NCBI GenBank assembly: GCA_041596355.1 | Contig: JBFHIS010000005.1 | Location: 29,430-93,429 of the forward strand | Source: Sulfurimonadaceae bacterium | GTDB taxonomy: Bacteria > Campylobacterota > Campylobacteria > Campylobacterales > Sulfurimonadaceae | Length of the DNA stretch: 64,000 nt | Direction: 5' to 3' | Shown: positions 12,905 to 62,749 of the stretch, piece by piece | How the letters are laid out: each line of letters opens with the position of its first letter | Position numbering within the stretch: position 1 is the first letter of the stretch | Translations under genes and position numbers: made by a program | The notes under the pieces: model-generated | What the model was told of the DNA's origin: nothing | Databases searched by the model: none | Seen by the model: the letters and a program-made list of their open reading frames with translations, nothing else

Positions 12905-13330
12905 TTTGAATCTGTTGGACATTTTAATATCCTTGACTACACTCTTTCCTTTTTCACGACCCGGCATTTAGTGCCTCCCTGCATTGCGCTGTTGGCGCTG
13001 ATACTCCGCAAAAAACGAAACCACACAGCACTAAAGTGCCGTACAGGACGGAACTAAATTCCGTATCGTGAAAAGCGCTCGTGACGGCTTTACCCGAGGG
13101 TATTTCCTTTGGTCACAAGTCGACAGCTGTCGACTCCCATCCTTCCAGTCATTCCTTCGCTAAAAACGACTAACTCACCTTCGGCTCAAACAGAGCCGTT
13201 TTATTAACGCTCTTTCACTCCTTACAGTCTGCCTTGCAGATGCCACGAATCATTCAATCGGTAACGCATCTATTGGATTTAAAAGCTTCGCTTTTATTCC
13301 TGTTTGAATTGCTTGGTGGCAGTTGCTCTT
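12905..13330 (+). repeat. intergenic repeat element, copy A (promoter-like head, hairpin arm unit, conserved body blocks)
   Basis: Shares TTGGACATTTnAATATCCTTGACTACACTCTT with copy B. Shares CGGCATTTAGTGCCTCCCTGCATTGCGCTGTTGGCGCTGATAC with copies C and D. Shares the GCGCTCGTGACGGCT, TCGCTAAAAAC, GATGCCACGA, GGTAACGCAT and AAAGCTTCGCTTTTATT..TTTGAATTG blocks with B and D. Sits between convergent genes. Confidence 0.6.
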
Positions 13331-13587
13331 GATGTCGAAAAAGCTTTATGGATTGGAGTTCAGACAGATATTGGCGTCTAACCGCCAATTAGCCCGGAAG
13401 CCGAAATATTCAACTCGCTCCCATGGTCTCCGTGGGAGTGTATATTTCAGTATCGAGTGATTCGCCCATATGTATTCCCACTTACAACGTGGGAACAAGG
13501 AGCTTAAACATAAAAAAAATCAGCCTTCATTAAGCAATATAGCCACGAAGAAAAGAGCCACATAATCTATCAAAATATTGACAAAGG

Positions 13588-17387: not shown

Positions 17388-17700
17388 TTTGAACCTGTTG
17401 GACATTTAAATATCCTTGACTACACTCTTACTTTTTTACGCCGCAAAAAAAGTAAGCAAAAAACCTCTCGTGACGGCTGCGCGGTCGGTAGCTACCGACT
17501 GCTTTCACTCCAGTCGTTCATGTCCTAAAAATCCCTAACTCACCTACGGCTCAGACAGAGTGATTTTATTAACGGTCATTCTCTTCTTACGTTCAACGCT
17601 GTAGATGCCACGAAAGAGAGCAAGCGGTAACGCATCTATTTTAAATTTAAAGCTACGCTTTAATCCCTGTTTGAATTGTTTGGCTATAGCTAGTTAATTG
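17388..17700 (+). repeat. intergenic repeat element, copy B (same promoter-like head as A; lacks the 50-bp arm unit)
   Basis: GAACCTGTTGGACATTTAAATATCCTTGACTACACTCTT, then the CTCGTGACGGCT, GGTCGGTAGCTACCGACT hairpin, CTAACTCACCTACGGCTCAGACAGAG..TTTTATTAACG, GATGCCACGA, GGTAACGCATCTATT and AAAGCTACGCTTTAAT..TTTGAATTG blocks. Confidence 0.6.
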
Positions 17701-17945
17701 TGTCGCAGCAGGATGTTGAATCTCTTCTATAATAAAGTACAAAAGCACAATAAGCGATACACGTTACGACCGGAGATGATGTTTGCAGTAATGCGAAAAT
17801 GTACGAAGGTCCAAAGTCACATCTCTAAAAATATAAATTCAAATCGCAACTATAGAATAAGTAAAACAAAAACCCTCAGTTTGCTTTCGTTATACTTGGT
17901 TAGTTAATAAAACTATGGGTCGGGTGACCCCTAAAAAGAGGTAAC

Positions 17946-18546: not shown

Positions 18547-19182
18547 ATGAGTAAAATGACCGTAGCCGAAGCATCTGAATACTTTAAGGTCTCAAAAGAG
18601 GCGATCCATAACCGCATCCGCCGCGGTACCCTCGATTGTGTTATTGAACATGGGACAAAGTATGTTGTTGTCGGCGAAGTTAAAAGTGAACCGGTGCAGA
18701 CCAGTGCCGGCAACGACAAATACTACAGTTATATTGAGCAGGAAAATGCGGCTCTTAAGGCCAAGATTTCCGAACTTGAAGGTGAGACGCGTTCACTCAG
18801 AGAACAGCGTGAGCAGATGCTGATCGATGAGAAAGAGAAAATTGAGCAGATCTATAAAGAGCGTGACGCTCAGCTCAAAAGTGTTCTTCAGGTGGTCGCT
18901 TCCAAATTTTTGACCCACCAGAATATGGATGCAGTCATAGAAGAGGCTGTTTCAGCTGAAGAGCCGCCGGCTCTGGACGATGTGATCGATGTTGTTGATG
19001 AAGAAGAGGATATGGTCTCATTGAAACAGTTCATGAAACTAAAGATGTACTCTAAAAAGAGACGCGAGAAGATCAAGGCACGTTTTGAAAAGTACGCTTT
19101 TGATGATGAACGGATCTTGATCAAAGAGCGCAAGATGTATCTTAAGCCCAACCACTTCGACTACAGCGATCTTATTAAGTAA
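18547..19182 (+). CDS. HTH (excisionase/MerR-like) DNA-binding protein with an acidic coiled-coil C-terminal region
   Basis: N-terminal MTVAEASEYFKVSKEAIHNRIRRG helix-turn-helix; heptad-rich, acidic remainder; 211 aa. Confidence 0.55.
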   Translation: MSKMTVAEASEYFKVSKEAIHNRIRRGTLDCVIEHGTKYVVVGEVKSEPVQTSAGNDKYYSYIEQENAALKAKISELEGETRSLREQREQMLIDEKEKIEQIYKERDAQLKSVLQVVASKFLTHQNMDAVIEEAVSAEEPPALDDVIDVVDEEEDMVSLKQFMKLKMYSKKRREKIKARFEKYAFDDERILIKERKMYLKPNHFDYSDLIK

Positions 19183-19345
19183 TTAGAGTAAGTCTCAACA
19201 GGCTGATAATAGTCGTAGCAGAAGATAAGGTACTCGAGCTGATTGTCTGTAAAAAATGATTTAGACTCACGGTAGGACTGTGCAGTAAGGGTTGGGATAA
19301 AAAACAAGGATAAAGTGATTCTGTTTGTGGGGAGTATTGTAGCAT

Positions 19346-19378
19346 CCAGACACTCCTAAAAAAAATAGGAGTGTTTGG
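19346..19378. terminator. hairpin terminator between convergent genes (HTH gene on +, lipoprotein gene on -)
   Basis: CCAGACACTCCT-AAAAAAAAT-AGGAGTGTTTGG: 12-bp stem with one G:U pair and an A/T-rich loop and flanks. Confidence 0.55.
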
Positions 19379-19461
19379 ACAGTTTTAGAAGTTAATTGTG
19401 AGTCACTCAGAAGGAGCACCTTCAGAGAGAATCTCTTGTTCTGTTGCCTATATAATTTTAA

Positions 19462-20895
19462 TTAAGGCTGTATGACAGTGTTGGCAATTAACGTAACTGC
19501 CGTTTGTGCCAAGAGTCTGCCGTTGACTGTCGCACCGGTGTTTAACGTAATCGCTTTTTTTGCCAATACTACACCTTTGAAATCCGCTGTTGTTCCAAGA
19601 GAGACACCCGTACCTCCTGCAACTTGCCAGAAGATATTTTTAGCCAATGCGCCGCCGGCGAGAGTTACTATGGCACCATCGTCCACCGTAAGATCTGCGG
19701 CTATCTGGAAGATCCAGACATCGGTTGCGCTACCCGTGATAGTGACACCTGCATTTGTTATTAAAACACCTGCCGGTGCATCCCATTTGTAAAGTCCAGG
19801 AGTAAGAACCTTACCGCTTACATTACCTGCATACAGTTCAACATAATCAGGCAATGTGCGTCCGGCTGCATCATTATATGCAGTTTCCATGTCGAGTACT
19901 GCCGTTGTCATTTTAGCCGGATCTGTATCGGCTGCATAAATTTTGCCTGTTACTAAATCTGATGTTGCATATGTGCCGACAAGAGTCTGACTAAATCCTT
20001 CCAGAACACTTATAGCAGACGGGCTAAGGCCTATATCTCCTGTAATCGCCGTAGTGCCTGTGGTTGTTATTGTCGTTTTAGCAAGGATTACAAAACTTCC
20101 CGCTGTGCCGAGATTGACTGGCGCTAGAACTGGCGCTTCGGTCGTTCCTGTTGTAAAACTCCAAACCTTAACAACTGCTAAAGCATTTCCGGCTAAGTCT
20201 GTAACGCCAGTAGTGATTGTCGCATTGTATTCAGTGTTTATATTAAGGTTTGCAGTAGGATTGAAGATCATCGTGTTGCTTTCATAGCTTACTGTGCCAG
20301 CAACAGGTGTACCACCCATTGTAGTAGTTAATGTAAAAGTAGCTGAGGTGACAGTAGTAGGATCGAGTGTTTCACTGAAGAGGGCACTGACACTTCTGTT
20401 AATCGACACGTTTATATCACTGTTGTCAGGGTCTGTTGACGTCACTGTAGGTGCAGTAAGGTCTGTTGCTGTCCCTGTTGTAAAACTCCAGAAATATTCT
20501 ACTGCCATAGCATTACCGGCTACGTCCTTCACTCCAGTAGTGATTGTCGCATTATATTCAGTGCCGGCACTAAGATTTGCATCAGGATTGAAAAGCATTG
20601 CATTGTTAGCATAGCTCACTGTACCATCAACAGGTGTACTACCGGCTGTAGTAGCTAATGTAAAAGTAGTTGGGTTTACCGTGGAATCATCAAGTGCTTC
20701 ATTAAAGAAGGCAGCGATGCTTGTATTAAGGGTTGCGTTATTGTCACCTTGAACAGGAGCTGTAGATACAACGGTAGGAGCAGTAGAGTCTATAGTGTTA
20801 TTACTGTTATTATCGCTGCATCCTGTTGCAAAAATTGTCAGCATAAAGAGCATGGAGAGTAGCGCTGTATTTGAGTATTGTTTAAATATTTTCAT
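19462..20895 (-). CDS. surface lipoprotein with tandem Ig-like (SbsA/Big-type) repeats and a C-terminal ice-binding-like (DUF3494-type) domain
   Basis: Start moved to the ATG with an AAGGA RBS (MKIFKQY...). Lipobox FATGC. About 2.5 copies of a roughly 102-aa repeat (TAPTVxSTxP...GTVSYxxNxMxFNPxANL...EYNATITTGVxDxAGNAxAV). C-terminal LGTAGSFVILAKTTITTTGTTAITGDIGLSP block typical of DUF3494. Confidence 0.75.
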   Translation of the reverse strand: MKIFKQYSNTALLSMLFMLTIFATGCSDNNSNNTIDSTAPTVVSTAPVQGDNNATLNTSIAAFFNEALDDSTVNPTTFTLATTAGSTPVDGTVSYANNAMLFNPDANLSAGTEYNATITTGVKDVAGNAMAVEYFWSFTTGTATDLTAPTVTSTDPDNSDINVSINRSVSALFSETLDPTTVTSATFTLTTTMGGTPVAGTVSYESNTMIFNPTANLNINTEYNATITTGVTDLAGNALAVVKVWSFTTGTTEAPVLAPVNLGTAGSFVILAKTTITTTGTTAITGDIGLSPSAISVLEGFSQTLVGTYATSDLVTGKIYAADTDPAKMTTAVLDMETAYNDAAGRTLPDYVELYAGNVSGKVLTPGLYKWDAPAGVLITNAGVTITGSATDVWIFQIAADLTVDDGAIVTLAGGALAKNIFWQVAGGTGVSLGTTADFKGVVLAKKAITLNTGATVNGRLLAQTAVTLIANTVIQP

Positions 20896-21320
20896 TCGAT
20901 TTGTCCTTATAGACACGTTTTTAAAACGTAAATAATATGAATGTAAGATCCGTTACAATGGATAGGTACAAATTCTGAAAGTGTGTCAAACTTACAACTA
21001 GTGATGTATAAAAGAGTGACAATGTTATAAACCTAGCTTCTCTTAGAGTATTTGAAATCACTCTAGATAACTTCAGTGTAGTTGAAATATTATAATTAAT
21101 GGACTCTAATCAATATTAGTTTAAATTATAAGTAATTGTGAAGTAATAGATAGATATGACAGTGTAAATGACCAATAGAAACGCATTTGTGCGTTGAGTA
21201 TGATCACTTTTAAACTTATCTGTATTTAACTGGCTGTTTTGAGGCTGCCTAAACAAGAATCACTACATCAAAAAGATCAATAAAACCTTTATAAACAAGG
21301 GCAGCAATTGTAAATCGACA

Positions 21321-24158
21321 TTAACGTCGTCGTTTAGGTCTCTCTGCGGCGCCGCTCTTTCGATCGGCAATTCGTTTCTCCATATTCAACTTCTTGAAAC
21401 AGCTCTGACAGATAGAGTACTTGGTATCCAGCGGCAGCGGTTTTGTACACTGTCGGCATCGTGGGACAAAGTGGCTCTGTTTGAGAGAGTTCTCGATAAA
21501 GTTGTTCAGTTTTACACGCGTCTGTTTTGCTTTCTCGGCATCAAAAAAGTACTCTTCAAAACGGTAACTCAACCACAGGTAAAGTGAAATCTCCTTAACA
21601 TAGTCTTCCGCTTCCAGAAGCTCATCCGTACTGTTGGCAAAACTGCCGAGATTGGCAGGTGGGAGATAGGGAATGAACTCATCTTTTTCAAGAAGGTGAA
21701 GGTACCGTTCATATGCGGCTACAATATAAGGCGAACGCAGACTCAACGGTGCGCAGGCCAGGTGAAACTTGGTTGGAAGGTCAATGTCGTAACCATCGAC
21801 GATCTTGGCCGCCTCGACCATGTCTTCGAGGTTTGCTGCCCGAAAGGGGCCGTTAAACTTCATGTACTTGACAAAGAAATTGAGGATCTCTTCGAGCGAG
21901 TTCTCTTCGAGAATACCCCCGACAAGTTTGATGTGTTCAAGATTTGCCATGACATTAAAAGGGATCTTGATCGGCGGCGGCGTTTGTGCGAAGGTCTCTT
22001 TGAGCTGGTTGAGTACTTCGGGACGAAGTGAACCGACATACCCTTTTTCATGCATACCGTATCGTCCCGCACGACCTGCTATCTGCTGGACTTCTGTTGC
22101 TATGAGCGGGCGTTGGTTGACACCGTCAAACTTGTCTCCGCGGGAGAAGAGAATGGTCTTTATAGGGAGGTTGAGCCCCATTGCAATGGCATCGGTCGCG
22201 ACCAGTATATCTGTTTCACCTTCACGGAAACGGCGCGCCTCTTCGCGTCGTACTTCCGGCGAGAGGTTCCCGTAAACGACACTGACACGATAGTTCTTGG
22301 AGAGCTGTTGTTTGAGTCTAAGGACATTGGCCCGGGAGAAGGCGATGACGGCAGTTGCCGGCTCGATCTCGTTTATCGGCGTAGCATGGGTCAGCATCGT
22401 GAGCGGGTTCTTACGTTCGAATTCTATGATCTCAAGCGGCTCGTTGAGGTATTCGGCCAAGGCGACGATCGCTTCTCTACAGTTTGGCGAACCTGTCATA
22501 ATAATAGTCTTTGCCGGGGCGCCGATGATAGCATTGGCCCAGGCCCATCCCCGATCGCGGTCATCTATCATCTGCACTTCATCGATGACGCAGACATCGA
22601 CATCCATCTCAAAGTTCAGCATTTCGATCGTTGATGAGATGTGTGTCGCATCTTCATGAAGAAGCTGCTCCTCTCCTGTGATCAGAGAGCTTTCGACACC
22701 ATCCTTCTTCAGTGACTCATACCCTTCTAGTGCCAATAGACGAAGCGGTGCCAGATAATAACCGGTGTCGGCCTTTTCAAGTGTTTTCATGGCTTGATAG
22801 GTCTTACCGCTGTTGGTCGGGCCGATATGTAAGACAAGCTTGCGGCGCAGCTCACGTGCCAATGGAAAGAGGTTTTTAAAGTCACGAATCGTACGGGCGA
22901 GAAGCTGCTGACGCTGGTGTTTTAGAAGGGCGTCTTTGATCTCATCATGAAAACGGGCTAGTGTCCGTCTGACGATCTTTTTAGAGATCAGCAGATCGGA
23001 GTGGAGCTGAGGAAGTAATACATTGAGGACCTTTTCGGTCACCTCTTCATCACTCATCTGCAGAGTGGATGCAGCCTCTTTGGCGCTTTGCAGAAGCTCG
23101 GTAAATTCGCGGTGAAAATGGGCTTCGTGCTCGAGCTGCTCTCTTTGCAACTGTTCGTAAATGGTAAGTTCTTGCGCATTCCAGATAGCGAGGAGGGTCT
23201 CTTTTTTCGGCATCAGCAGGTGCAGTTCGTAAGGCAGTGTCTGTTTTGCATGCTCAGGGGTGAACTCGGCCTGAATACTCAGAATGATCTCTGTCATGGT
23301 CTGAGCAAGCCCGTTAAGCGGTATTAACGGCGTAAAGATCCGTTGTAAGACCGCATCAGTGAGGGTGATGTAGGTAACGTCTTCATTGGGTTCCGCCCGT
23401 TTGATCGCAGCGATGATCTCCTCTTTTGAGAGGTATGGGTGCGGGGAAGGAATGTTTTTCAGAAAGTTTGTCAGTTCCTCCTGTTTGCGTTTTGTTAGTG
23501 CTGTTTTCTCTTCTGTCAGTGCCGCAATGATCTCTTCGACAGGACGTTCCTGTAAAAAGCTGAAGGCGAAGGCCTTGGTACGCAGCGGTTGGATCTTGTG
23601 GAAGCTTTCACCTTCGATCTCATAAAGAAGAGAGGCGTTGTATTCCAGCCGGTTTTCAACGTCAAAGATACCCTGGACGCTCTTTTCTATCGTCGTCCGT
23701 TTCTTCTCAAAACGGATATGCTCGAGTTTGCTTTGGAGTTTATAGAGGTTGATCTTCTTGGTCCGCACATCCATAAATGCCTGATGGAGTTCGATCGCTT
23801 CTTCTTTGGTGATGTCTGGGATCTCCAGTAGAAGCTCTTCTATCCTCTCTGCACGCTCATCATGGTGGAGTCTTGGGTTAGCGGGAAGATAGGTCTGCTC
23901 GTTGGCTCTGAAAAACTCAACAATGTGCCGGCGTATCTCTATATCGGCCTCGGACCAGAGTGTGCGGAAGATACGCACCAGGTTTTTTTTGGAAAAGTTC
24001 TCTGTGACGATGCCGAGAGCCTGCGCAAGTTCTATAAGTGTTGCTTCACTTACACGCTCTATTCCTGCATCAAAACCGTCTTCGCCGAAATAGTGGCGAA
24101 TGGCCTGGTTTAATTTAATAAATTTTTTCTTTTTTGACATAGAAGAATAATAGCGCAA
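21321..24158 (-). CDS. Suv3-like SF2 ATP-dependent helicase with a roughly 440-aa N-terminal extension and a C-terminal zinc ribbon
   Basis: HIGPTNSGKTYQA Walker A (Suv3/SUPV3L1 signature); DEVQMIDD; SRANV; ATDAIAMGLNLP; QIAGRAGR motif VI; C-terminal CRQCTKPLP...CQSC; Lys/Arg-rich tail. Confidence 0.8.
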   Translation of the reverse strand: MRYYSSMSKKKKFIKLNQAIRHYFGEDGFDAGIERVSEATLIELAQALGIVTENFSKKNLVRIFRTLWSEADIEIRRHIVEFFRANEQTYLPANPRLHHDERAERIEELLLEIPDITKEEAIELHQAFMDVRTKKINLYKLQSKLEHIRFEKKRTTIEKSVQGIFDVENRLEYNASLLYEIEGESFHKIQPLRTKAFAFSFLQERPVEEIIAALTEEKTALTKRKQEELTNFLKNIPSPHPYLSKEEIIAAIKRAEPNEDVTYITLTDAVLQRIFTPLIPLNGLAQTMTEIILSIQAEFTPEHAKQTLPYELHLLMPKKETLLAIWNAQELTIYEQLQREQLEHEAHFHREFTELLQSAKEAASTLQMSDEEVTEKVLNVLLPQLHSDLLISKKIVRRTLARFHDEIKDALLKHQRQQLLARTIRDFKNLFPLARELRRKLVLHIGPTNSGKTYQAMKTLEKADTGYYLAPLRLLALEGYESLKKDGVESSLITGEEQLLHEDATHISSTIEMLNFEMDVDVCVIDEVQMIDDRDRGWAWANAIIGAPAKTIIMTGSPNCREAIVALAEYLNEPLEIIEFERKNPLTMLTHATPINEIEPATAVIAFSRANVLRLKQQLSKNYRVSVVYGNLSPEVRREEARRFREGETDILVATDAIAMGLNLPIKTILFSRGDKFDGVNQRPLIATEVQQIAGRAGRYGMHEKGYVGSLRPEVLNQLKETFAQTPPPIKIPFNVMANLEHIKLVGGILEENSLEEILNFFVKYMKFNGPFRAANLEDMVEAAKIVDGYDIDLPTKFHLACAPLSLRSPYIVAAYERYLHLLEKDEFIPYLPPANLGSFANSTDELLEAEDYVKEISLYLWLSYRFEEYFFDAEKAKQTRVKLNNFIENSLKQSHFVPRCRQCTKPLPLDTKYSICQSCFKKLNMEKRIADRKSGAAERPKRRR

Positions 24159-24351
24159 AAAGGGTATAGAATCACCTTGTTGATGGCAATCCTCGGAACA
24201 GCTTTTGCACTGTCATAGAGGTTGATAGCTGAATTATACGGCTGGAGCTGAAGTTTTAGAGATAACTATAAATCAAAGTGGCAACAGTAAAAAGCTTTGA
24301 TAAAATTTTCAAAATTAGAGGGAATTCTGCCAAGAACCCTAAGGTAACTAA

Positions 24352-32639: not shown

Positions 32640-32711
32640 ATGGGGTAGAGGGATTCGAACCCCCGAATACTGGTACCAAAAACCAGTGCCTTACCGCTTG
32701 GCGATACCCCA
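32640..32711 (-). tRNA. tRNA-Gln (anticodon UUG); CCA apparently not encoded
   Basis: Reverse complement TGGGGTATCGCCAAGCGGTAAGGCACTGGTTTTTGGTACCAG...TTCGAATCCCTCTACCCCA, close to E. coli tRNA-Gln; loop UUUUGGU. Confidence 0.8.
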
Positions 32712-32737
32712 ATATTTATGAAAGTTGTTTTTTATGT

Positions 32738-32814
<77 letters not shown>

Positions 32815-32941
32815 ACATTTAAAATTTTTGCTTTATGCCGTACTCTGCGTTAGTTCTTCCTTCGGATACTGGCGTATACCTCAGTCTCAACTGCCTTGAT
32901 TACAACAAAAATCAATAAATTTTACAACCGTTGATTGTAAA

Positions 32942-33026
32942 TGGTGCGGACGAGAGGACTTGAACCTCCACACCGTGAGGCACCAGATCCTAAGTCTGGC
33001 GTGTCTACCAATTCCACCACGTCCGC
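32942..33026 (-). tRNA. tRNA-Leu (anticodon UAG), copy 1
   Basis: 85 nt with a long variable arm; loop CUUAGGA; CCA encoded. Confidence 0.9.
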
Positions 33027-33070
33027 GTTTTTTGTAATAATAAGTAAAATAAAGTTAACAATCAAATAGA

Positions 33071-33155
33071 TGGTGCGGACGAGAGGACTTGAACCTCCAC
33101 ACCGTAAGGCACCAGATCCTAAGTCTGGCGTGTCTACCAATTCCACCACGTCCGC
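33071..33155 (-). tRNA. tRNA-Leu (anticodon UAG), copy 2 (one nucleotide different from copy 1)
   Basis: Identical to copy 1 except for a G/A change in the variable arm; 44-bp AT-rich spacer. Confidence 0.9.
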
Positions 33156-33344
33156 ATGTGTTTGTTGTTAACAGTATTAATAAAGAACATCTATCATTTT
33201 AATTTCTCTGTTTTCAAAAACAGAAGCTTTAGTGCCATAGCGGCAAGCAGTTGTCTCTATGTTCTTTGCAAAACTTTGCAAAAGCTTTAGTGACTTAGCG
33301 TCTAGCGTAGGAAATGGGCTTTGCTCATTTTCGTTCTAAACAAA

Positions 33345-33421
<77 letters not shown>

Positions 33422-33432
33422 GTATTTTTTAA

Positions 33433-33509
33433 TGGTACGCCCGACAGGGTTCGAACCTGTAACCGGCGGTGCCGAAAACCGCTACTCTATCCAGTTGAGC
33501 CACGGGCGC
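33433..33509 (-). tRNA. tRNA-Arg (anticodon read as UCG; loop UUUCGGC)
   Basis: GCGCCCGTGGCTCAACTGGATAGAGTAGCGGTTTTCGGCACCGC...GGTTCGAACCC...CCA. The anticodon assignment depends on hand-folding. Confidence 0.65.
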
Positions 33510-33553
33510 ACACTGTAAAAAATGTCTTATTTCAAATTTTAATTTCTATCAAA

Positions 33554-33631
33554 TGGGGTGAGATACGGGATTCGAACCCGCGACCCCCGGCACCACAAAC
33601 CAGTGCTCTAACCAACTGAGCTAATCTCACC
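33554..33631 (-). tRNA. tRNA-His (anticodon GUG) with genomically encoded G-1
   Basis: An extra 5' G pairs with C73; loop UUGUGGU; CCA encoded. Confidence 0.88.
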
Positions 33632-33659
33632 ATATGTTTGAAAAAAATAAGAAATAAAG

Positions 33660-33737
33660 TGGTCGGGGCGAAAGGACTCGAACCTTCGACCCCCTGGTCC
33701 CAAACCAGGTACTCTAACCATACTGAGCTACGCCCCG
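33660..33737 (-). tRNA. tRNA-Pro (anticodon UGG)
   Basis: CGGGGCGTAGCTCAGTATGGTTAGAGTACCTGGTTTGGGACCAGG...; C1:G72 typical of tRNA-Pro; CCA encoded. Confidence 0.88.
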
Positions 33738-37605: not shown

Positions 37606-38172
37606 TTATTGCTCTTTAAGAATTTTGACAATGGCCTCCGGAAGAAGCTTGTGCTCGAGTCTGCGTATCTTTCGGGTAAAGCTTTCGAGTGTCTCATCGG
37701 CTGTTTTAGAAAAGGCATCTTGGACGATAACCTCGCCTCCGTCGAGTTCGGAACTGACCCAGTGGACACTGACACCGCCGGAAAGCTCACTGCTTTCAAA
37801 ACTCTTTTCTATGGCGTTACCGCCTTTGAAAAGAGGCAGAAGCGAAGGGTGGACATTGATCGCTTTGATGTTGTCTGTGATGACAGGTGTCAAGATGCGC
37901 ATAAAGCCGGCCATAACGACCAGGTCCGGATCATAGTGGCGAATGGTATGCAGGAGCTGGTGGTCAAAACTTTCTCTGTCGCTAAAGTCGGTGTGGTCGA
38001 TGACCTCTACAGGGACATGATGTTCTTTCGCTTTTGCGATCCCGCCGGCATTGGGACGGTTAGTGATCGCGGCAAGGACATCGACCTCTTTGTGATGGAG
38101 TGTTTCGATGATGTTGAGAAGGTTGGACCCTTCTCCGCTAAAAAGGATGACGATTGTTTTACGACTCGGCAT
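37606..38172 (-). CDS. purN: phosphoribosylglycinamide formyltransferase (folate-dependent)
   Basis: IVILFSGEGSNL, NVHPSLLP and other PurN motifs; 188 aa. Its start codon lies inside the first arm unit of repeat locus C. Confidence 0.9.
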   Translation of the reverse strand: MPSRKTIVILFSGEGSNLLNIIETLHHKEVDVLAAITNRPNAGGIAKAKEHHVPVEVIDHTDFSDRESFDHQLLHTIRHYDPDLVVMAGFMRILTPVITDNIKAINVHPSLLPLFKGGNAIEKSFESSELSGGVSVHWVSSELDGGEVIVQDAFSKTADETLESFTRKIRRLEHKLLPEAIVKILKEQ

Positions 38173-38310
38173 TTAGTGCCTCCCATGCATTGAACTGTTG
38201 GTTCCGATACGACTCGGCATTTCACGATCCGTCATTTAGTGACTCCCTGTATTGTGCTGTTGGCACTTAACTGCCTTCCGTGCATTGCGCTGATACGATG
38301 AATCATTTAG
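38160..38310 (+). repeat. repeat locus C: about three degenerate tandem copies of the roughly 45-bp arm unit CGGCATTTAGTGCCTCCCTGCATTGCGCTGTTGGCGCTGATAC
   Basis: acgactCGGCATTTAGTGCCTCCCaTGCATTGaaCTGTTGG.., ..gactCGGCATTTcacgatCC.., GTCATTTAGTGaCTCCCTGtATTGtGCTGTTGGCacT.., ..TGCATTGCGCTGATACgatg. Contiguous units, no unique spacers. Confidence 0.55.
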
Positions 38311-38341
38311 AGTTTTTTCCGTATGGTGGTGTTGACATTGA

Positions 38342-39733: not shown

Positions 39734-39882
39734 GCGTGTTCCTGCTTATTAATTGCATTATTATAGCCAATGTGAGTGAATAGGGGTGAGTTGAGTTATA
39801 ATACGGTTTATCATAAGAACCAAAGGTTCAATGCATGGGTGGTACGATAGTGCCAACAGCACAATAGAGGAAATAGTTTATA

Positions 39883-40857
39883 ATGAGTCGTAAAAACGAT
39901 TACAGAGCAATTGTCAAAGAGACATTGGAAATCGAAGCTAACACGCTTTTGCAAGCTGCTGAAAAGATCTCTGAAGATCTCGATAAGATCGTAGAGACGA
40001 TTCTGCAATGCAAGGGTAAGTTGATCGTTACCGGTGTCGGTAAGTCCGGGCTGATCGGTGCGAAAATGGCGGCGACTTTTGCCTCGACCGGGACACCCAG
40101 TTTTTTCCTGCACCCAACCGAAGCGATGCATGGTGACTTGGGAATGATCTCAAAAGAGGATGTTGTACTGGCCATCAGTTACAGCGGAGAGAGTGAAGAG
40201 CTCAGCTCGATTTTGCCGCATGTAAAACGGTTTGATATCCCGTTGATCGGTATGACAAAAAACAGCACCTCTACATTGGGTGATTTCAGTGACCTGCTGG
40301 TGACAATCGATGTGAAGAAAGAGGCGTGTCCGCTCGACATCGCACCGACCTCTTCAACAACGCTGACATTGGCTCTCGGAGATGCTTTGGCGGTCTGTCT
40401 GATGAAGGCCCGTGACTTTAAAAAAGAGGATTTCGCCTCGTTCCATCCGGGTGGTTCGTTAGGTCGTCAGCTTTTTGTAAAAGTCAAAGATGTCATGCGG
40501 AAAGAGTCCTTGCCGGTCATCAACATGAAGACGCCGCTTAAAGAAGCGATCGTGAGCATCAGTGAAGGACGTATCGGTACGGTCCTTCTGGTTGATGACA
40601 ATAACAAGTTTACAGGTCTCATCAGTGATGGTGACATTCGCCGTGCGTTGCTGAACAAAGCATTCTCTCTCGAAGAGCCGGCTTCGACGTATGCGACCTT
40701 AAATCCAAAGACAATCGACGACGCAAGCATGCTTGCAAGCGACGCGTTGGTATTGATTGAAAAATATAAGATCCAGCTCCTGGTAGTGGTTGACAAAGAG
40801 AAAAACCTTCTCGGTGCTCTACATCTCCATGATCTGGTTGAAAAGGGAATCGCATGA
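39883..40857 (+). CDS. KpsF/GutQ family sugar-phosphate (arabinose-5-phosphate) isomerase with SIS and tandem CBS domains
   Basis: GKLIVTGVGKSGLIGAKMAATFASTG SIS motif; CBS pair at the C-terminus; 324 aa. Confidence 0.88.
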   Translation: MSRKNDYRAIVKETLEIEANTLLQAAEKISEDLDKIVETILQCKGKLIVTGVGKSGLIGAKMAATFASTGTPSFFLHPTEAMHGDLGMISKEDVVLAISYSGESEELSSILPHVKRFDIPLIGMTKNSTSTLGDFSDLLVTIDVKKEACPLDIAPTSSTTLTLALGDALAVCLMKARDFKKEDFASFHPGGSLGRQLFVKVKDVMRKESLPVINMKTPLKEAIVSISEGRIGTVLLVDDNNKFTGLISDGDIRRALLNKAFSLEEPASTYATLNPKTIDDASMLASDALVLIEKYKIQLLVVVDKEKNLLGALHLHDLVEKGIA

Positions 40858-57125: not shown

Positions 57126-57734
57126 ATGAAACAGGCATATCAATTTACGCTTATACTCTTAATGGCTGCTGTGTTTGCAGGTTGTGGTGATAACAGTACC
57201 CAAAACCCTTACATGATGGGTGAAAAACCAGCGGACAAGAAGCAGGTCTATACGGTCTCTAATCAAAGCAAAGACAGCGCCGTTGTCATAGCGTCGATCG
57301 AAGGAGAAACGCAAAAAGAGATTGCCAAGATCAACAAAGAGCGTGATGTCGAGCTTCAAAAGCTGGCGCAGAACACGAAGCTTGTTGAGATCAACGCACA
57401 AAATGAGATAGCCGTTAAAGAGCACAACCTCTCCACTTTTGTACAAGAGAGTGATTACGCGTTTAAAAAGAGTACCCTGATAGTAGTCTCCTTTGCACTG
57501 ATCGCATTTCTCGCCTTGGCGCTTTATATGTTTAGAAAACGCCGTGAAGATAAGTTGAAAATGCATGAGAACGAACTGCAAAAAGAGATGTATATTCGTG
57601 AAAAAGAGCTGCAGGTGAAGATGGCTGAGAAGATCCTCGATACCATTGCAAGTGGAAAGCTTTCCAAAGAACGCGAGCAGCATCTGTTGGAGACTTTTGA
57701 CAAGGCGGCACCGGGGTTACCTAACAAGAAGTAG
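57126..57734 (+). CDS. hypothetical lipoprotein with coiled-coil and one internal TM segment
   Basis: Lipobox AVFAGC; start ambiguous (the track gives 57108). Confidence 0.5.
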   Translation: MKQAYQFTLILLMAAVFAGCGDNSTQNPYMMGEKPADKKQVYTVSNQSKDSAVVIASIEGETQKEIAKINKERDVELQKLAQNTKLVEINAQNEIAVKEHNLSTFVQESDYAFKKSTLIVVSFALIAFLALALYMFRKRREDKLKMHENELQKEMYIREKELQVKMAEKILDTIASGKLSKEREQHLLETFDKAAPGLPNKK

Positions 57735-57849
57735 TCTGCGACAGGCTTTTTGGTTTTGCACTTGAAATAATTGTATACCCTTTAATTCTTTATTGGCTTC
57801 TCTTTATTTTTTAGTACAGGCGTATCGTTGAAAAGTACAACTTTCGTCT

Positions 57850-58310
57850 CATACACTCTTTCTTTTTTCACGACTCGGCATTTAGTGCCTCCCTGCATTG
57901 CGCTGTTGGCGCTGATACGCCGCAAAAAAATAAAACAAAAAAAGCGCTCGTGACGGCTTCGCAGTCGGTGGCTACCGACTGCTTTCCTTACAGTCGTTCT
58001 TTCGCTAAAAACTGCCGCACCGATGCTTCGCATAACGGTTTATCCAAAAAAACGTGCCTTACAGCACCTTTCTTTTGGCATATCGTCGGCTAAAAAACGC
58101 AAAGAAATTCGCCTTTTTCTTAAGGCCTTTGGCACTCCATACGCTCAACGCTGTAGATGCCACGACACAGGGCTAAAGCCCCGTACAGGGAGGCACTAAA
58201 TGCCGAGTCGTGAAAGAGCTAAGCGGTGACGCATTGATTTGAATGTAAAAGCTTTCGCTTTTGATTTAGTTTGAACTTTGTCGATGTAGAACTGCGTGTT
58301 GGTACAGCTA
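57850..58310 (+). repeat. intergenic repeat element, copy D (perfect 30-bp inverted repeat at 57866-57895 and 58186-58215 flanking 290 bp of conserved body blocks)
   Basis: TTTCACGACTCGGCATTTAGTGCCTCCCTG ... CAGGGAGGCACTAAATGCCGAGTCGTGAAA. The interior carries the GCGCTCGTGACGGCT, AGTCGGTGGCTACCGACT, TCGCTAAAAAC and GATGCCACGA blocks; the tail carries GGTGACGCAT, AAAGCTTTCGCTTTTGATT and TTTGAACTT. Confidence 0.6.
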
Positions 58311-58399
58311 GAACCTACGGAGGGATTTCGTAACTCCGAGTATTCTGATTGATCAAATTGTGACTGTGACCGCCATCGTGCTCTCTTTTTTTCGTTAGG

Positions 58400-58427
58400 T
58401 TTTTTCTCTGCACGAGCAGAGAAAAAA
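58400..58427. terminator. perfect 12-bp-stem hairpin (TTTTTTCTCTGC-acga-GCAGAGAAAAAA), likely a bidirectional terminator downstream of aroC
   Basis: Stem and loop read directly from the sequence; U-runs on both strands. Confidence 0.6.
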
Positions 58428-58594
58428 AGTGACATACTAGTGATTTGAAGTAATTAAAAAAGTTTGAACGTTCAAAAAAGTCACAAGTAATAGACCAAAG
58501 TCATAAAGTAAAAATAGTAAAAAGGACAAAGGAGTTAATTGTCTAGTAGATGACGTCTAATTAAGGACTCGAAGAAATGGAAGAAAGCGTAGAT

Positions 58595-59671
58595 TTACGC
58601 TTTGTAGTACCCTTTGATGCCATCCATCGTCCGCCCCATGTTAAGTAGTACCATGTCTGCTACCACAAGGGCTGCCATCGCTTCGGCAACGACAGAACCG
58701 CGAATAGCGACACAAGGATCATGGCGCCCTTTGAGGGCAAAGTCGACCTCTTCGTCATGGGTCGTTGTTGTATGCTGCTCAATGAAGATAGAAGGTGTCG
58801 GCTTGAAGTAGACGTTGACGCGAACCTCTTCGCCGTTACTGATACCGCCCAGAATACCGCCGGAATGGTTCGACTCAAAACCGCTGTTTCGAATAGGGTC
58901 ATTGTTGGTTGAACCGAAGGCTTTGGCACTCTCTGCACCGTCGCCGATCTCGACGGCTTTAACGGCATTTATTCCCATCATCGCTTCAGCCAGGACACCG
59001 TCGAGCTTATAGTAAAGCGGCTCGCCCAGACCGATCGGCAGGTTGCGCATTCTGATCTGCGCAACGCCGCCGACAGAGTCGTGACGGTTCTTGGCTTCGA
59101 TGATGGCATCTTTTTGGGCCTGTTCGACATTTTTATCGAGAGCATAGATCTCGCTGCCGGCGACATAGTCGTAGTCCAGTGTCTCAGCCTGGATACCTGC
59201 GATCTCGATAATACCGCTTTCAATCGTAATACCCAGCTCGTTTAACATCATTTTTGCCACGGCACCGGCAGCAACACGGGCGGCTGTTTCGCGTGCCGAC
59301 GAACGTCCGCCGCCGCGATAATCGCGAATGCCGTATTTATGCCAGTAGGTAAAGTCGGCATGCCCCGGTCGGAAGGTGTCTTTGATGTTGCTGTAGTCCT
59401 TGGACTTCTGGTTGGTGTTGTAGATGACCATGGCGATCGGTGTTCCGGTACTCAGCCCTTCGAATACACCGCTCAGGATCTCGACGCTGTCGGCCTCTTT
59501 ACGGGCAGTTGCGTATTCGTTTTGCCCGGGTTTACGGCGGTCAAGCTGGGCCTGGATATAGGCTTCATCGATAGTCAGACCAGCCGGTACGCCGTCAATC
59601 AGACAGCCGATCGCCTTACCGTGTGATTCACCAAACGTAGAAAAACTGAAACGGATGCCGAAACGGTTCAT
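58595..59671 (-). CDS. aroC: chorismate synthase
   Basis: MNRFGIRFSFSTFGESHGKAIGCLIDG N-terminus and other AroC motifs; 358 aa. Confidence 0.93.
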   Translation of the reverse strand: MNRFGIRFSFSTFGESHGKAIGCLIDGVPAGLTIDEAYIQAQLDRRKPGQNEYATARKEADSVEILSGVFEGLSTGTPIAMVIYNTNQKSKDYSNIKDTFRPGHADFTYWHKYGIRDYRGGGRSSARETAARVAAGAVAKMMLNELGITIESGIIEIAGIQAETLDYDYVAGSEIYALDKNVEQAQKDAIIEAKNRHDSVGGVAQIRMRNLPIGLGEPLYYKLDGVLAEAMMGINAVKAVEIGDGAESAKAFGSTNNDPIRNSGFESNHSGGILGGISNGEEVRVNVYFKPTPSIFIEQHTTTTHDEEVDFALKGRHDPCVAIRGSVVAEAMAALVVADMVLLNMGRTMDGIKGYYKA

Positions 59672-60348
59672 GAGCCACCCTTGTTTAATAAATTGATAGC
59701 GATTGCAGCAGATTCCTGCTGGGCCACTTTTTTGCTTTTTCCACTTGCCCGGGCGTACTCTTTGCCGTCGACAAAGACGGCGATCTCAAACTCTTTTTTA
59801 TGGTCAGGACCGTGTGAACGGACCAGCTTGTACTCAGGCGTCGTGCCAAAGAGTGCTTGTGTCATCTCCTGCAAGGTCGTTTTATAGTCTTTGAAAAGCG
59901 TGTCAAGAGAGATGTCAGGGTGGACCTCTTCCAAGAGTTTGATGCTAACGTCTCTTGCTTTTTCCAAGCCTGCCTCAAGGTACAAGGCCCCTATGATCGC
60001 TTCAAAAGCATTTGAGAGCAGAGAGGGCTTGGAACGACCGCCGTTGTTCTCTTCTGCATTGGACAAAAAGAGTTGCCCTCCCAAACTGATATGCTCGGCG
60101 AGTCGGGTAAACCCGTCTTCGTTGACCAGGGATGCCCGCATTTTGGAAAGTTTTCCTTCATCATGATTAGGAAAGTTTTCATAAAGGTATTGCCCGACAA
60201 TAAGGTCCAATACCGCATCTCCTAAAAACTCCAAACGTTCATTATTGTAGGGCTGCTTGTAACTTTTGTGCGTCAGCGCTTCAATAATGAGCTTTTTATC
60301 TGTAAAACTGTAATTCAGTCGATCTTCAAGTTTCTGTATCTCTTCCAT
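59668..60348 (-). CDS. rnc: ribonuclease III
   Basis: ERLEFLGDAVL catalytic signature; C-terminal dsRBD; 4-nt overlap with aroC. Confidence 0.93.
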   Translation of the reverse strand: MEEIQKLEDRLNYSFTDKKLIIEALTHKSYKQPYNNERLEFLGDAVLDLIVGQYLYENFPNHDEGKLSKMRASLVNEDGFTRLAEHISLGGQLFLSNAEENNGGRSKPSLLSNAFEAIIGALYLEAGLEKARDVSIKLLEEVHPDISLDTLFKDYKTTLQEMTQALFGTTPEYKLVRSHGPDHKKEFEIAVFVDGKEYARASGKSKKVAQQESAAIAINLLNKGGS

Positions 60349-60390
60349 CTGTAACCTTTCAAAAATTTAATATGCCGTTTAAAGTAAGGG

Positions 60391-60816
60391 TCAAAGACCC
60401 TGGTACTCTTCAGCGATAGAACGTGCGATCGCATCGCACCGTTCATTCTCTTCATGTCCGGAATGGCCTTTTATCCAAACACCGAGTACTGTGTGTTGAG
60501 CGGACACTTTGACGTACTCTTGCCAAAGGTCCAGGTTCTTGACTTTTTTAAAGTCACGTTTTATCCAGTTGTCTAACCACTCGTTGATCCCTTTGACAAC
60601 ATAAGAGGAGTCTGAGATCACTTCGACGTGACAAGGTTCTTTTAGTGCTTTTAACCCTTCAATAACACCAAGGAGCTCCATGCGGTTATTCGTAGTGTGA
60701 GCTTCACCACCGCTTAATAGACGCTCTTTGCCGTTATAGCGTAAGATCGTCGCGTACCCTCCCGCTCCTGGGTTCCCCAAAGCACTGCCATCACTGAAAA
60801 GAGTTATTCGCTTCAA
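60391..60816 (-). CDS. rnhA: ribonuclease HI
   Basis: TDGSALGNPG..., TNNRMEL and DSSYV motifs; 141 aa. Confidence 0.93.
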   Translation of the reverse strand: MKRITLFSDGSALGNPGAGGYATILRYNGKERLLSGGEAHTTNNRMELLGVIEGLKALKEPCHVEVISDSSYVVKGINEWLDNWIKRDFKKVKNLDLWQEYVKVSAQHTVLGVWIKGHSGHEENERCDAIARSIAEEYQGL

Positions 60817-61834
60817 AGTGATCCTTTGTCAAAAGTGCTTCAGTAACGACAGAATCAATACTGTGGCAGTTCGGGCACCGGTGAAAACTAAAGGGATAGA
60901 TCTGTTTACACTCGCCGCAAAGGTAGTCAAACTGCAAGGTCGCACCGCTTTGGTCGGCTATGTTGAGTTTGATCAGCACATCAAACTCAAAAATGCTGCT
61001 CTCTTGCGCCAGCAGTGCTGTACCTTTAGCGCTGAAGAGTTCTCGCAGATAACTGTTAGAAGAGATTATATCCAAATTTGTCTCAGCCTCACGAGCATTC
61101 CAGAGGATGTCAAGGATCCGTTCAGACTGGCCAAGGTCCAGGTTTTTCCATGCCAAGTCCGGTGTATGACGGAAGAGATACTCGAAAATAAGATAGCTTA
61201 AAAGATGATGTTGCCGATAAAGTTCCAGCAGGAGTCCGGCCTTTTCATCGACGCCATATTGTGCGCTGCGGATAATAGAGACTGCCTGTAGGTAGACACG
61301 GTCTTTTCGGTTGTCGATGCCCAACTCATCGAGCGGTTCCAAAACTTCCAAAGCTTTGTCGAACTGGTGCATCTTCTCATAAATAATAAGGAGGTAACGG
61401 AGTGCCTTGGGTGTTCGGGGAAACTGTTTGAGTATCTGTAAAAAGATCTCCTGGGCACGTTCTAAAAAGCCGGCTTTAAAATAGGTCTGCCCCAACAGGT
61501 AGAGCGTTTCACTCTTTTCGGCCGGATCTTTCTGCATCTCGAGCATGATCAGATAGATCTCTATACACTTCTCATAGTCGCCGTTTTGATAGTAGGTCTG
61601 TGCCATGATCAGTGCAGATTTCTCTGAGATCGCCTGGGTACTCATGAGAGTCTTAAGCTCTTGTTCTGTCGGGGTTGAATTAAAAATGTCAAGAAAACTG
61701 TTAAGATGACGGGAATCTTCTTTGCGTTTAAAACGACCCCACCAATAAGAGATGAGGGCAATAACAAAGACAAGAGAGAAAAAGATGATGATGCCAAAAA
61801 GAGGATCACGAAATTCGATAAATAAGCTGTTCAC
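60791..61834 (-). CDS. TPR-repeat membrane protein with C-terminal zinc ribbon
   Basis: N-terminal TM; several TPR-like helices; CGECKQ...CPNCHS; 26-nt overlap with rnhA. Confidence 0.6.
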   Translation of the reverse strand: MNSLFIEFRDPLFGIIIFFSLVFVIALISYWWGRFKRKEDSRHLNSFLDIFNSTPTEQELKTLMSTQAISEKSALIMAQTYYQNGDYEKCIEIYLIMLEMQKDPAEKSETLYLLGQTYFKAGFLERAQEIFLQILKQFPRTPKALRYLLIIYEKMHQFDKALEVLEPLDELGIDNRKDRVYLQAVSIIRSAQYGVDEKAGLLLELYRQHHLLSYLIFEYLFRHTPDLAWKNLDLGQSERILDILWNAREAETNLDIISSNSYLRELFSAKGTALLAQESSIFEFDVLIKLNIADQSGATLQFDYLCGECKQIYPFSFHRCPNCHSIDSVVTEALLTKDHFEANNSFQ

Positions 61835-62016
61835 ATCCTCTCCTTAGAATAGAGGGCATTTTTAAAAGCCCTCAAAATTATACCCCACAGTAACTTTTGA
61901 AAAGCAAACTATAGCGAAGTCGAGATATCTCCCGCGAAGAAGAGTACGGCTGATATCACATAATAATCACAACAGATCATGAAAGATCAAATATGACGTA
62001 AATAATAATAAATGTA

Positions 62017-62046
62017 TTGACTTTAACCGTCAAGACACTCTATAAT
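62017..62046 (+). promoter_or_regulatory. sigma70-like promoter (TTGACT-N18-TATAAT) whose -35 lies in the palindrome TTGACTTTAACCGTCAA
   Basis: Read directly from the sequence; 38 bp upstream of the recombinase-like gene start. Confidence 0.45.
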
Positions 62047-62083
62047 GATGATGAAAATAAAAAAACGGGAGGTTTATTCGTCA

Positions 62084-62749
62084 ATGGCAATTAGTTATAT
62101 CCGCCCAGATAAATATTTTGACGGCGCTTTCGAGCAGCTAAAAAGCATAAATGCTTATGCTCAAGCGAGTAATATTGAAATCTCTAATGAATATGTTGAC
62201 CATACCTCGCAGAACAATACTTTGGATGCACGCGAAGCAGTCGTAACTTTTTTTAGAAACAACCAAAATAGAGATCTGCTCATATCAGACATATGGGTAT
62301 TGAGCAGTAATATTACGGACCTTCTACAAATGGTCGCTTGTCTGTTGAAAAACAATATGCGTATTCATGTGATAAACGCCGGTGTTGTGATCGATCAGAA
62401 GAGTGAGATTATGCTGGTCTTAGGTATTATCGATCAGCTGCGACAGGTCTTGGAGAGTAGAGAGAAGAAGATGATCGGCCGTCCGAAAGGGAGCCGTTCC
62501 TCCTCGAAGTTCGATCCCTATTTGGATCAGATCATCGGGTACATACGTGACAATTTGAGTGTCAGTGCAATGGCCCGCGAAATGAATGTAAGCCGTAGTT
62601 CGTTGAAAGACTACATTGAGTCGCGGGAGCTGAAAGAGGTGGCAAAAGGTCTTGTCACTTTGGATGTCCCTGCTGATGCAGAAGAGAAGGTGATAGGTAC
62701 GATAGTCTGTCCCCATTCAGAAAAAAACATAGAGGAGTCAACAGTATGA
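62084..62749 (+). CDS. serine recombinase (resolvase/invertase) homolog lacking the catalytic serine; C-terminal HTH
   Basis: Start set at the ATG 10 nt after a GGGAGG RBS. N-terminus ISYIRPDKYFDG aligns with resolvase GYARVSTxxQ with Ser replaced by Pro. C-terminal RPKGS...LSVSAMAREMNVSRSSL is an HTH. Confidence 0.65.
   Translation: MAISYIRPDKYFDGAFEQLKSINAYAQASNIEISNEYVDHTSQNNTLDAREAVVTFFRNNQNRDLLISDIWVLSSNITDLLQMVACLLKNNMRIHVINAGVVIDQKSEIMLVLGIIDQLRQVLESREKKMIGRPKGSRSSSKFDPYLDQIIGYIRDNLSVSAMAREMNVSRSSLKDYIESRELKEVAKGLVTLDVPADAEEKVIGTIVCPHSEKNIEESTV

Follow-up and report, generated by a model that had tools for sequence, protein, structure and literature searches.

The intergenic repeats considered here lie in a 64,000-nucleotide (nt) stretch of a Sulfurimonadaceae chromosome (the window; contig JBFHIS010000005.1) and are two different things, a non-coding unit of 0.45-0.65 kb, present as copies A, B and D, and a separate mini-element of ~45 nt, the arm. 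In our estimate the chance is about even that the three copies are paralogous members of a structured non-coding RNA family specific to the Sulfurimonadaceae clade, with a triple-helix 3' cap. A preliminary description of this DNA had listed four related loci, A to D, and all four are present in the window with the blocks quoted for them; a repeat search of the window links A, B and D by long direct repeats and the arm copies by both direct and inverted repeats. Its picture of a dense, modular family has been borne out, the family being absent from Rfam, and to this are added a tail module with a triple-helix signature, a strand bias and a placement 3' of genes, all of which it had overlooked.

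A three-strand pattern in the tail

The tail is represented in the window by copy D (module 58387-58489) and is absent from A and B. Its order is a polypyrimidine tract (S1), the linker CGTTAGG, a second polypyrimidine tract (S3), a loop of 4-6 nt, a polypurine tract (S3') and a conserved box. S3 and S3' make a Watson-Crick hairpin. S1 complements S3' in parallel: read in the same 5'-to-3' direction, the two tracts set T against A and C against G. Such a code and polarity predict a pyrimidine-motif major-groove triplex of ~10-12 triples on a single strand. In copy D the putative third strand S1 (TCTCTTTTTTTC, 58382-58393, + strand) is the parallel complement of 58418-58429; the hairpin (58400-58429, +) consists of S3 (TTTTTTCTCTGC, 58400-58411), the loop ACGA and S3' (GCAGAGAAAAAAAG, 58416-58429), and is followed by the conserved box TGACATACTAGTGATTTGAAGTAATTAAAAAAG and the end of the unit (58430-58490, +). 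About 10 positions of this tail have both Watson-Crick and Hoogsteen partners, and 2 more have a Hoogsteen partner only.

The same pattern is kept through sequence change. Among 40 intact tails with 13 purine-strand variants, 466 of 476 positions (97.9%) are Hoogsteen-compatible; permutation of S1 among the variants averaged 82.5% and rose no higher than 88.9%, and 0 of 2000 permutations reached the observed value. S1 is the exact parallel complement of S3' in 45/45 intact tails when the metagenome copies are included, and natural compensatory variants include TTCTTCTTTTTC paired with AAGAAGAAAAAG. A generic triplex motif scan of 560 kb returned 41 matches, 38 of them in tails, and none in the reversed-sequence control. 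Several subfamilies have a C.A mismatch in the hairpin, the C in S3 and the A in S3', and S1 still matches S3'. Because S1 tracks S3' despite the mismatch in S3, selection acts on the same-strand contact of S1 with S3', and such a contact favours a single-stranded fold over duplex H-DNA. Other partnerships of S1 were examined and set aside: a Watson-Crick partner elsewhere in the unit reached at best 9-11 of 12 matches, at inconsistent positions in A-rich tracts, so that the parallel relation was preferred, and a purine-motif triplex on the minus strand was less consistent, since S1 follows S3' rather than S3.

We propose, tentatively and at somewhat less than an even chance, that the tail is a natural long (10-12 triples) bacterial pyrimidine-motif RNA triple helix, of a paperclip topology distinct from that of the ENE, capping dozens of paralogous ~0.5-kb structured RNAs per genome.

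A second, weaker tail box (..GTCACAAG..AGAC..TATGAAGTAAT.AAA) is found ~45 nt after the first in the window (58462-58560) and at the loci L034, L049 and L067 of related genomes; the repetition hints at a short direct repeat of what may be a protein-binding or processing site. The tail box was also considered as a sigma-70 promoter on either strand and rejected, its hexamers being poor by eye and a promoter scan of 57700-58650 giving no site there.

Body folding, strand and age of the units

Upstream of the tail the body of the unit shows three co-varying helices (RNAalifold, 55 bodies). In the curated body structure of 52 pairs, 91.7% of cells are paired vs 41-49% with the partners slid by 1-3 columns, and cells with double changes number 231 vs 94+/-9 in shuffles (0/500). 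The structure contains an invariant G-U pair at 225/248, a near-invariant G-U pair at 95/114 and C-G alternating with U-G at 220/252 (36:19). Since G-U pairs would be mismatches on the minus strand, the body co-variation holds for the + strand only; in keeping with one strand, the fold of copy B compared with shuffles gives z=-2.76 for the + strand and z=+0.65 for the minus strand.

The folding strand is the G-rich strand of the locus, as judged by GC skew, in 64/67 copies. The upstream neighbour is co-oriented with the unit in 54/67 cases vs a baseline of 61% for all open reading frames (ORFs), and the downstream neighbour in only 24/62; 26 of 48 arrays are flanked by convergent genes. From the upstream stop codon to the start of the body the distance is usually 50-190 nt. 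A hairpin with a T run stands between that stop codon and the head of the unit in 8 of 54 gaps, according to a simple detector that missed the one before D, a terminator-like hairpin of the upstream gene (57733-57757) that precedes the promoter-like site of this copy.

Several of the sites are shared with related genomes. The B site beside sdhB is occupied at loci L021 and L025, and sdhA/sdhB-type neighbours are found also at L024, L027 and L037; the A site is occupied at L025 and the D site at L051 and L057. No empty site for a whole unit was found in the orthologous loci, all four of which are occupied, and the unit boundaries are not fixable in this way. The identity of the bodies to their positional orthologues (72-77%) compares with 36-71% at four-fold sites of the flanking genes and is the same as that among the A, B and D bodies within the window (~76%). 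Nearest-neighbour bodies are 74-96% identical, none is identical, and the nearest neighbour is in the same genome in 34/55 cases; positional orthologues may differ in extension type and in the presence of a tail, as in window B vs L021. From the body identity above that of four-fold sites, the occupied sites and the module differences it follows that the family is old, constrained and module-exchanging, with no recent burst.

A scan with a strict body motif over one genome per GTDB species matched 76 loci, all from ~10 metagenome-assembled genomes (MAGs) and all in Campylobacterota, with the labels Sulfurimonadaceae, Helicobacteraceae, Campylobacterales or Campylobacterota. Up to 18 loci occur in some MAGs (up to about 20 copies each), some with 2-3 tandem copies at a period of 580-690 nt, and one MAG has three consecutive units. 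The JGI metagenomes added 26 further true copies of the same architecture and no new context, together with 2 chance matches, and nhmmer with modules derived from the window gave 88 BODY5 and 96 BODY3 matches in the 560 kb searched. The possibility raised before, that the four loci stand alone and are unconserved in relatives, is thus answered by a family that recurs in ~10 MAGs with its positional orthologues occupied. Viral contigs gave 0 hits to body, tail or arm patterns, BLAST found no plasmid or phage match to the units, and a search of the literature on repeats or small RNAs in Sulfurimonas and relatives found nothing relevant. The units are a previously undescribed, high-copy conserved non-coding family of sulfur-oxidising Campylobacterota.

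Many of the strict-motif matches are at contig ends. The sole other public assembly with the exact aroC product, Logan contig SRR29257459_38272 (L001, equivalent to window 58304-62671), ends inside copy D, and numerous MAG contigs likewise end within units; because contigs end inside them, the family is a systematic assembly breakpoint in this clade.

Searches for known RNAs and proteins were negative. Rfam at the gathering threshold finds 9 tRNAs only in the whole window; the covariance scan that had been called for gave for the units no match to HEARO/IscB omega-RNA, group II introns, 6S, tmRNA, RNase P, known small RNAs or any other family, and at E<=10 copies A and D and a clean unit at L045 yield sub-threshold noise only. 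Clustering of 597 ORFs at the 76 loci found no recurrent protein or transposase-like family next to the units, none of the 20 window ORFs scanned against Pfam is a transposase, Y1 or TnpB (all are housekeeping), and no RAYT was seen in the 64-kb window or in 8-kb MAG pieces. Nor is any ORF conserved in frame or length among 69 units, in which ORF clusters of 25-87 amino acids have shifting starts. A small conserved ORF or type I toxin-antitoxin was accordingly rejected, there being no conserved ORF and 1-2 nt indels between the conserved blocks, and so was a classical miniature inverted-repeat transposable element (MITE), the units having no terminal inverted repeats and the arm site no clear duplication.

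Anatomy of the copies and the arm mini-element

Profile searches with nhmmer give a fixed order of modules: head, BODY5, BODY3, an extension that is of A-, B- or D-type, and tail. The head consensus is ..TTGACT(A/T)C(A/T)CTCTT, and promoter scans place a -35-like hexamer 16-18 nt upstream of TACACT at the equivalent position in A, B and D. The promoter-like head that had been noted is therefore present in all three window copies; a promoter of its own is not universal across the family, TAnnnT standing at the -10 position in ~36/82 copies counted by eye. The block carrying this head had been assigned to A and B only, and copy D too has the TACACT box, as TTGAAA-18-TACACT (57828-57857, +). The left boundary of the unit is fuzzy, with two head subtypes and apparently without a sharp terminus or a conserved flanking target. 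Strongly conserved boxes are e.g. GCAGATGCCACGA, AAGCGGTAACGCAT and GTGACATACTAGTG.TATGAAGTAAT, and the body contains an internal A-tract/hairpin/U-tract (H3). Many copies are riddled by small insertions. Insertions are tolerated specifically in loops.

Profile matches extend the units beyond the limits first given, to 12905-13425 for A, 17390-17840 for B and 57828-58490 for D. A three-way alignment of A, B and D shows the body to be colinear in all copies, the extra material of A and D to be discrete insertions, and copy B to be the minimal version; the rearranged block order described earlier disappears, since the apparent change of order is due to the ~45-nt arm, independently inserted in different loops. 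Terminal inverted repeats are lacking in the units; the inverted arms were inserted separately and are missing both in B and in the orthologous copy at the D site in L057.

Copy A begins on the + strand with a promoter-like head, TGGACA-16-TACACT or TTGGAC-17-TACACT (12908-12946), and has two inverted arms in and beside the loop of its 5' hairpin, H1: arm A1 (12956-13002, +) follows a T run in the loop, and the diverged arm A2 (13025-13069, -) lies 3' of GCGCTTTTC on the minus strand. The body (BODY5 and BODY3; 13068-13318, +) includes helices P1, P2, H3 (A-tract/hairpin/U-tract, 13182-13205), Hb and Hc, and leads to a type-A extension with the conserved hairpin TTGGCG-TCTAAC-CGCCAA and no tail (13326-13425, +). 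Copy B consists on the + strand of a head TGGACA-16-TACACT (17390-17431), a minimal body free of arms (17433-17690) and a type-B extension, again without a tail (17692-17840). In copy D the promoter-like site is followed by arm D1 in the H1 loop (57870-57916, +) and by the body (57916-58165, +), which arm D2 (58166-58211, -) interrupts in the Hb loop, between GATGCCACGA and AAGAGC; the remaining body (the 3' strand of Hb, and Hc) and the type-D extension (58212-58385, +) run up to the tail. A segment of ~120 nt in the body of copy D, DINS (58011-58129), is an alternative or duplicated H3-like module that replaces or duplicates the H3 domain, and it recurs at L011, L019, L058 and L070.

Locus C (38161-38312, +) had been counted as a copy of the family; it has no body and is a cluster of arms only, comprising C1 (38161-38207), C2 (38209-38222 and 38270-38294), a partial arm (38295-38312) and the nested arm C3 (38224-38269), which interrupts C2. 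One or more degenerate arms, inverted relative to locus C, lie nearby (39817-39891, -). The arm motif CACGACNCGGCATTTAGTGCCTCCC occurs 5 times in the window with <=3 mismatches vs 0.01 expected, and a looser arm-head pattern gives 8 matches vs 1.9 expected. With an arm hidden Markov model 42 copies were found. The arm consists of two small hairpins, both with TTTAG-type loops, and wherever the 5' end is intact (37/37 arms) it starts ACGA(C/T) immediately 3' of T3-7, one C being optional between. Its sites are the H1 loop, the Hb loop, the purine arm of the tail hairpin or places outside any unit, and arms also nest in the TTTAG loop of other arms (window locus C, L060, L053). Arm orientation is independent of GC skew (20 vs 16).

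The insertion of an arm can be followed at one gene start. In the window this start is unoccupied (ATG TCA AAA AAG AAA AAA TTT), and in the MAG locus L021 the orthologous gene start is occupied by a 45-nt arm inserted 3' of the opposite-strand T run, with no clear target-site duplication between the occupied and the empty site. This is direct evidence of arm mobility. The arm is not part of the proposed RNA; it enters hairpin loops on the 3' side of exposed T runs, and such insertion explains its differing places in A and D, its nesting at C and its absence from B. The earlier suggestion of a mobile element or MITE thus fits the arm, which behaves in a MITE/REP-like manner, and does not fit the body, a separate entity that is old and not recently transposed.

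Arms can also supply gene starts. The reverse strand of the arm reads CAGGGAGG-CACTAA-ATG-CCG-AGT-CGT, a Shine-Dalgarno sequence and start codon running into the adjacent A run. In L021 (5230-5320) the arm follows the fourth codon of the gene orthologous to window ORF 21321-24158 (window 24100-24160); the old frame now meets a stop, and the arm gives a new ATG (MSHR|KKFIKLNQ vs window MSKKKKFIKLNQ). In the window the purN-like ORF 37606-38172 (-) takes its Shine-Dalgarno sequence and ATG from the reverse strand of arm C1 (MPSR|KTIVILF..), and the kpsF-like ORF 39883-40857 (+) takes ATG AGT CGT from the terminus of the degenerate arm (MSR|KN..). Further small insertion families share the loops of the arm and are found after T runs or inside the tail hairpin, e.g. 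CAGAGAAACAT..CGGTACCCTTGTTTT and ACTAGGTGAATTGCGTAGCAAGAGAGGATGCCCTGGGGTGC; their loci are L074:600-720, L029, L053, L065:3113-3148, L060:2940-3000, L003:2900-2990 and L042, and one of them interrupts an arm.

The window is otherwise ordinary chromosome of ~45% GC with housekeeping genes (sdhB/frdB, aroC, purN, dnaG and a tRNA cluster). A segment at 19182-21297 is missing from the otherwise syntenic L021; it holds an ORF encoding Big_5 and Ice_binding domains (19462-20916, -), together with an internal tandem repeat of 300 nt (20144-20770, 73% identity).

Alternative readings and known systems

If the units are structured RNAs, they would be read on the + strand, co-oriented with the local GC skew, and transcription would start at a TAnnnT promoter of the unit itself (present in all three window copies) or reach the unit by read-through from a co-oriented gene ending 10-100 nt upstream. 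The full unit would fold into the 5' U/A hairpin H1, a multi-helix body, one interchangeable extension domain and the tail, where S1 would occupy the major groove of the S3/S3' hairpin through ~10-12 U.A-U and C+.G-C triples. The triple helix may then serve as a 3'-end cap that halts 3'-to-5' exonucleases, and the cap would make the unit, and possibly the mRNA upstream of it, more stable. The analysis itself establishes the family, the colinearity of its copies, the co-variation and the strand on which it holds, the constraint, the triplex signature, the statistics of orientation and placement and the insertion polymorphism of the arm. We infer that the units are transcribed, that the folded species is RNA rather than single-stranded DNA and that the role is a stabilising one.

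A number of observations weigh against such a reading. Pyrimidine-motif triplexes are classic for DNA, and their C+.G-C triples require protonation. Copies A and B are entirely without a tail, several tails elsewhere are split by arm insertions in S3', and nothing terminator-like follows the tail hairpin, so that the 3' end is undefined. By-eye counts find TTCTCT or TCCTCT in place of TAnnnT in ~40/82 copies, and helices 2 and 3 of the curated structure are tentative, with one-sided changes only. GC skew is partly driven by gene orientation; in the window it is positive on the + strand nearly throughout, and all nine tRNA genes (2531-2603, 32640-33737) are on the minus strand, opposite to the units. 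Strand bias and hairpins, finally, are equally expected of an element transposed as single-stranded DNA.

It is unlikely, in our judgement, that the whole unit is such an element, i.e. a non-autonomous one (an IS200/IS605-type PATE or other HUH/Y1-driven element) whose hairpins and triplex form on the lagging-strand template and are recognised by a transposase in trans. IS200/IS605 elements show a strand bias like that of the 64/67 copies with the folding strand on the G-rich strand, and a PATE or a TnpB/IscB omega-RNA (HEARO) shares with the repeats described here the subterminal hairpins, the multi-copy structured non-coding units and, in the arm, the duplication-free insertion 3' of a short motif. 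That the units are multi-copy and intergenic, often between convergent genes, that assemblies break at the copies and that DNA triplexes of the T.A-T and C+.G-C kind are well documented would also fit. Against this stand the lack of any associated TnpA, TnpB or IscB gene, with no Y1, TnpB or other transposase-like ORF recurring near ~100 copies or among the 20 window ORFs, and the age of the copies, which are diverged, positionally conserved and never identical, the A, B and D sites being shared with genomes near four-fold saturation while the bodies stay at 72-77%. Several conserved G-U (G-T) pairs, a left end apparently without sharp terminus or conserved flanking target and the absence of an omega-RNA or HEARO match point the same way; the preliminary description had offered a PATE/omega-RNA remnant of IS200/IS605 as a candidate, and no such signal was found.

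Two further explanations dispense with a functional RNA. Orientation tied to GC skew, placement at gene 3' ends and between convergent genes, strongly conserved boxes that might be protein sites, and the mirror-repeat pyrimidine tract made by S1 and S3, the classical requirement of H-DNA, could all belong to a BIME/REP-like cis element of chromosome architecture acting as DNA, either a nucleoid or topoisomerase platform or an oriented barrier of H-DNA or cruciform type that hinders replication or convergent transcription. We consider this improbable: duplex H-DNA needs S1 to mirror S3, and S1 is perfect to the same-strand S3' where S3 is often imperfect; wobble co-variation confined to one strand is unexplained by duplex protein sites; and insertions are tolerated specifically in loops. 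Least probable of all is that the units are a selfish repeat in decay, functionless today, with a structure left over from the ancestral element and a similarity due to gene conversion. Positional orthologues no closer than paralogues and differing in extension or tail do indicate exchange between copies, A and B are truncated and small insertions are widespread; however, compensatory changes keep helices and triplex over 13 variants and ~10 genomes, gene conversion alone homogenises and would not change three strands in concert, identity is far higher than at neutral sites, and the strand bias is extreme.

Several known systems resemble parts of the repeats described here. The tail shares with the ENEs of MALAT1, MENbeta and PAN ~10 consecutive major-groove U.A-U triples with C+.G-C, formed by two U-rich strands and an A/G-rich tract of one RNA, a position near the 3' side of a non-coding transcript and a proposed role in blocking 3' decay, all of these for the tail as predicted. 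It has the ENE strand pattern of two U-rich strands and one A-rich strand, with co-variation, and lacks the internal-loop clamp: the tail is a contiguous paperclip of pyrimidine (Hoogsteen), loop, pyrimidine (Watson-Crick), loop and purine strands in a bacterial host, whereas the ENE uses a U-rich internal loop to clamp a distal A-rich tail at the 3' end. H-DNA has the mirror-repeat polypyrimidine tract and the T.A-T and C+.G-C code in common with the tail, and differs in that S1 of the tail co-varies with the same-strand purine arm of a hairpin and not with a duplex partner. The arm is like REP, BIME and REPIN sequences in being a short, mobile hairpin repeat with an unpaired 5' tag, inverted doublets (copy A), clusters (locus C) and intergenic or gene-end positions, and whole units too lie at gene 3' ends. 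REP tags are GTAG or CGTC (PMC3733652); the arm tag ACGA(C/T) is neither, so the arm is REP-like and not a member of those families. It differs further in its two hairpins with TTTAG loops, its strict T-run target and its insertion in hairpin loops including those of other arms, and the 0.5-kb body has no REP counterpart. The Correia/NEMIS elements of Neisseria, pneumococcal BOX and enterobacterial ERIC are transcribed repeats that are likewise intergenic and built of combinable modules, some with promoter-like ends, and that influence or form part of mRNA 3' or 5' regions; the units are much longer, have a co-varying multi-helix body, a triplex module and no terminal inverted repeats, and are restricted to one Campylobacterota clade.

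At the practical level the units break short-read assemblies of the clade. The niche of the arm is unusual, in that it targets T runs in hairpin loops and also those opposite Lys-rich gene starts, to which it donates a new ribosome-binding site and start codon. The family itself, in which each genome has tens of constrained paralogues, is a candidate large structured non-coding RNA. In a 2026 review of RNA triple helices bacteria figure only with riboswitch and group II intron triples; going by reviews, the tail, if it folds in RNA as proposed, would give bacteria their first counterpart of the triple-helix stability elements of eukaryotes and viruses, and its 13 co-varying variants are a natural mutational series. 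The C+.G-C triples and the recurrent C.A (potential A+.C) positions could in addition make the stability of the RNA pH-sensitive, a property that, if true, would be relevant for sulfur oxidisers.

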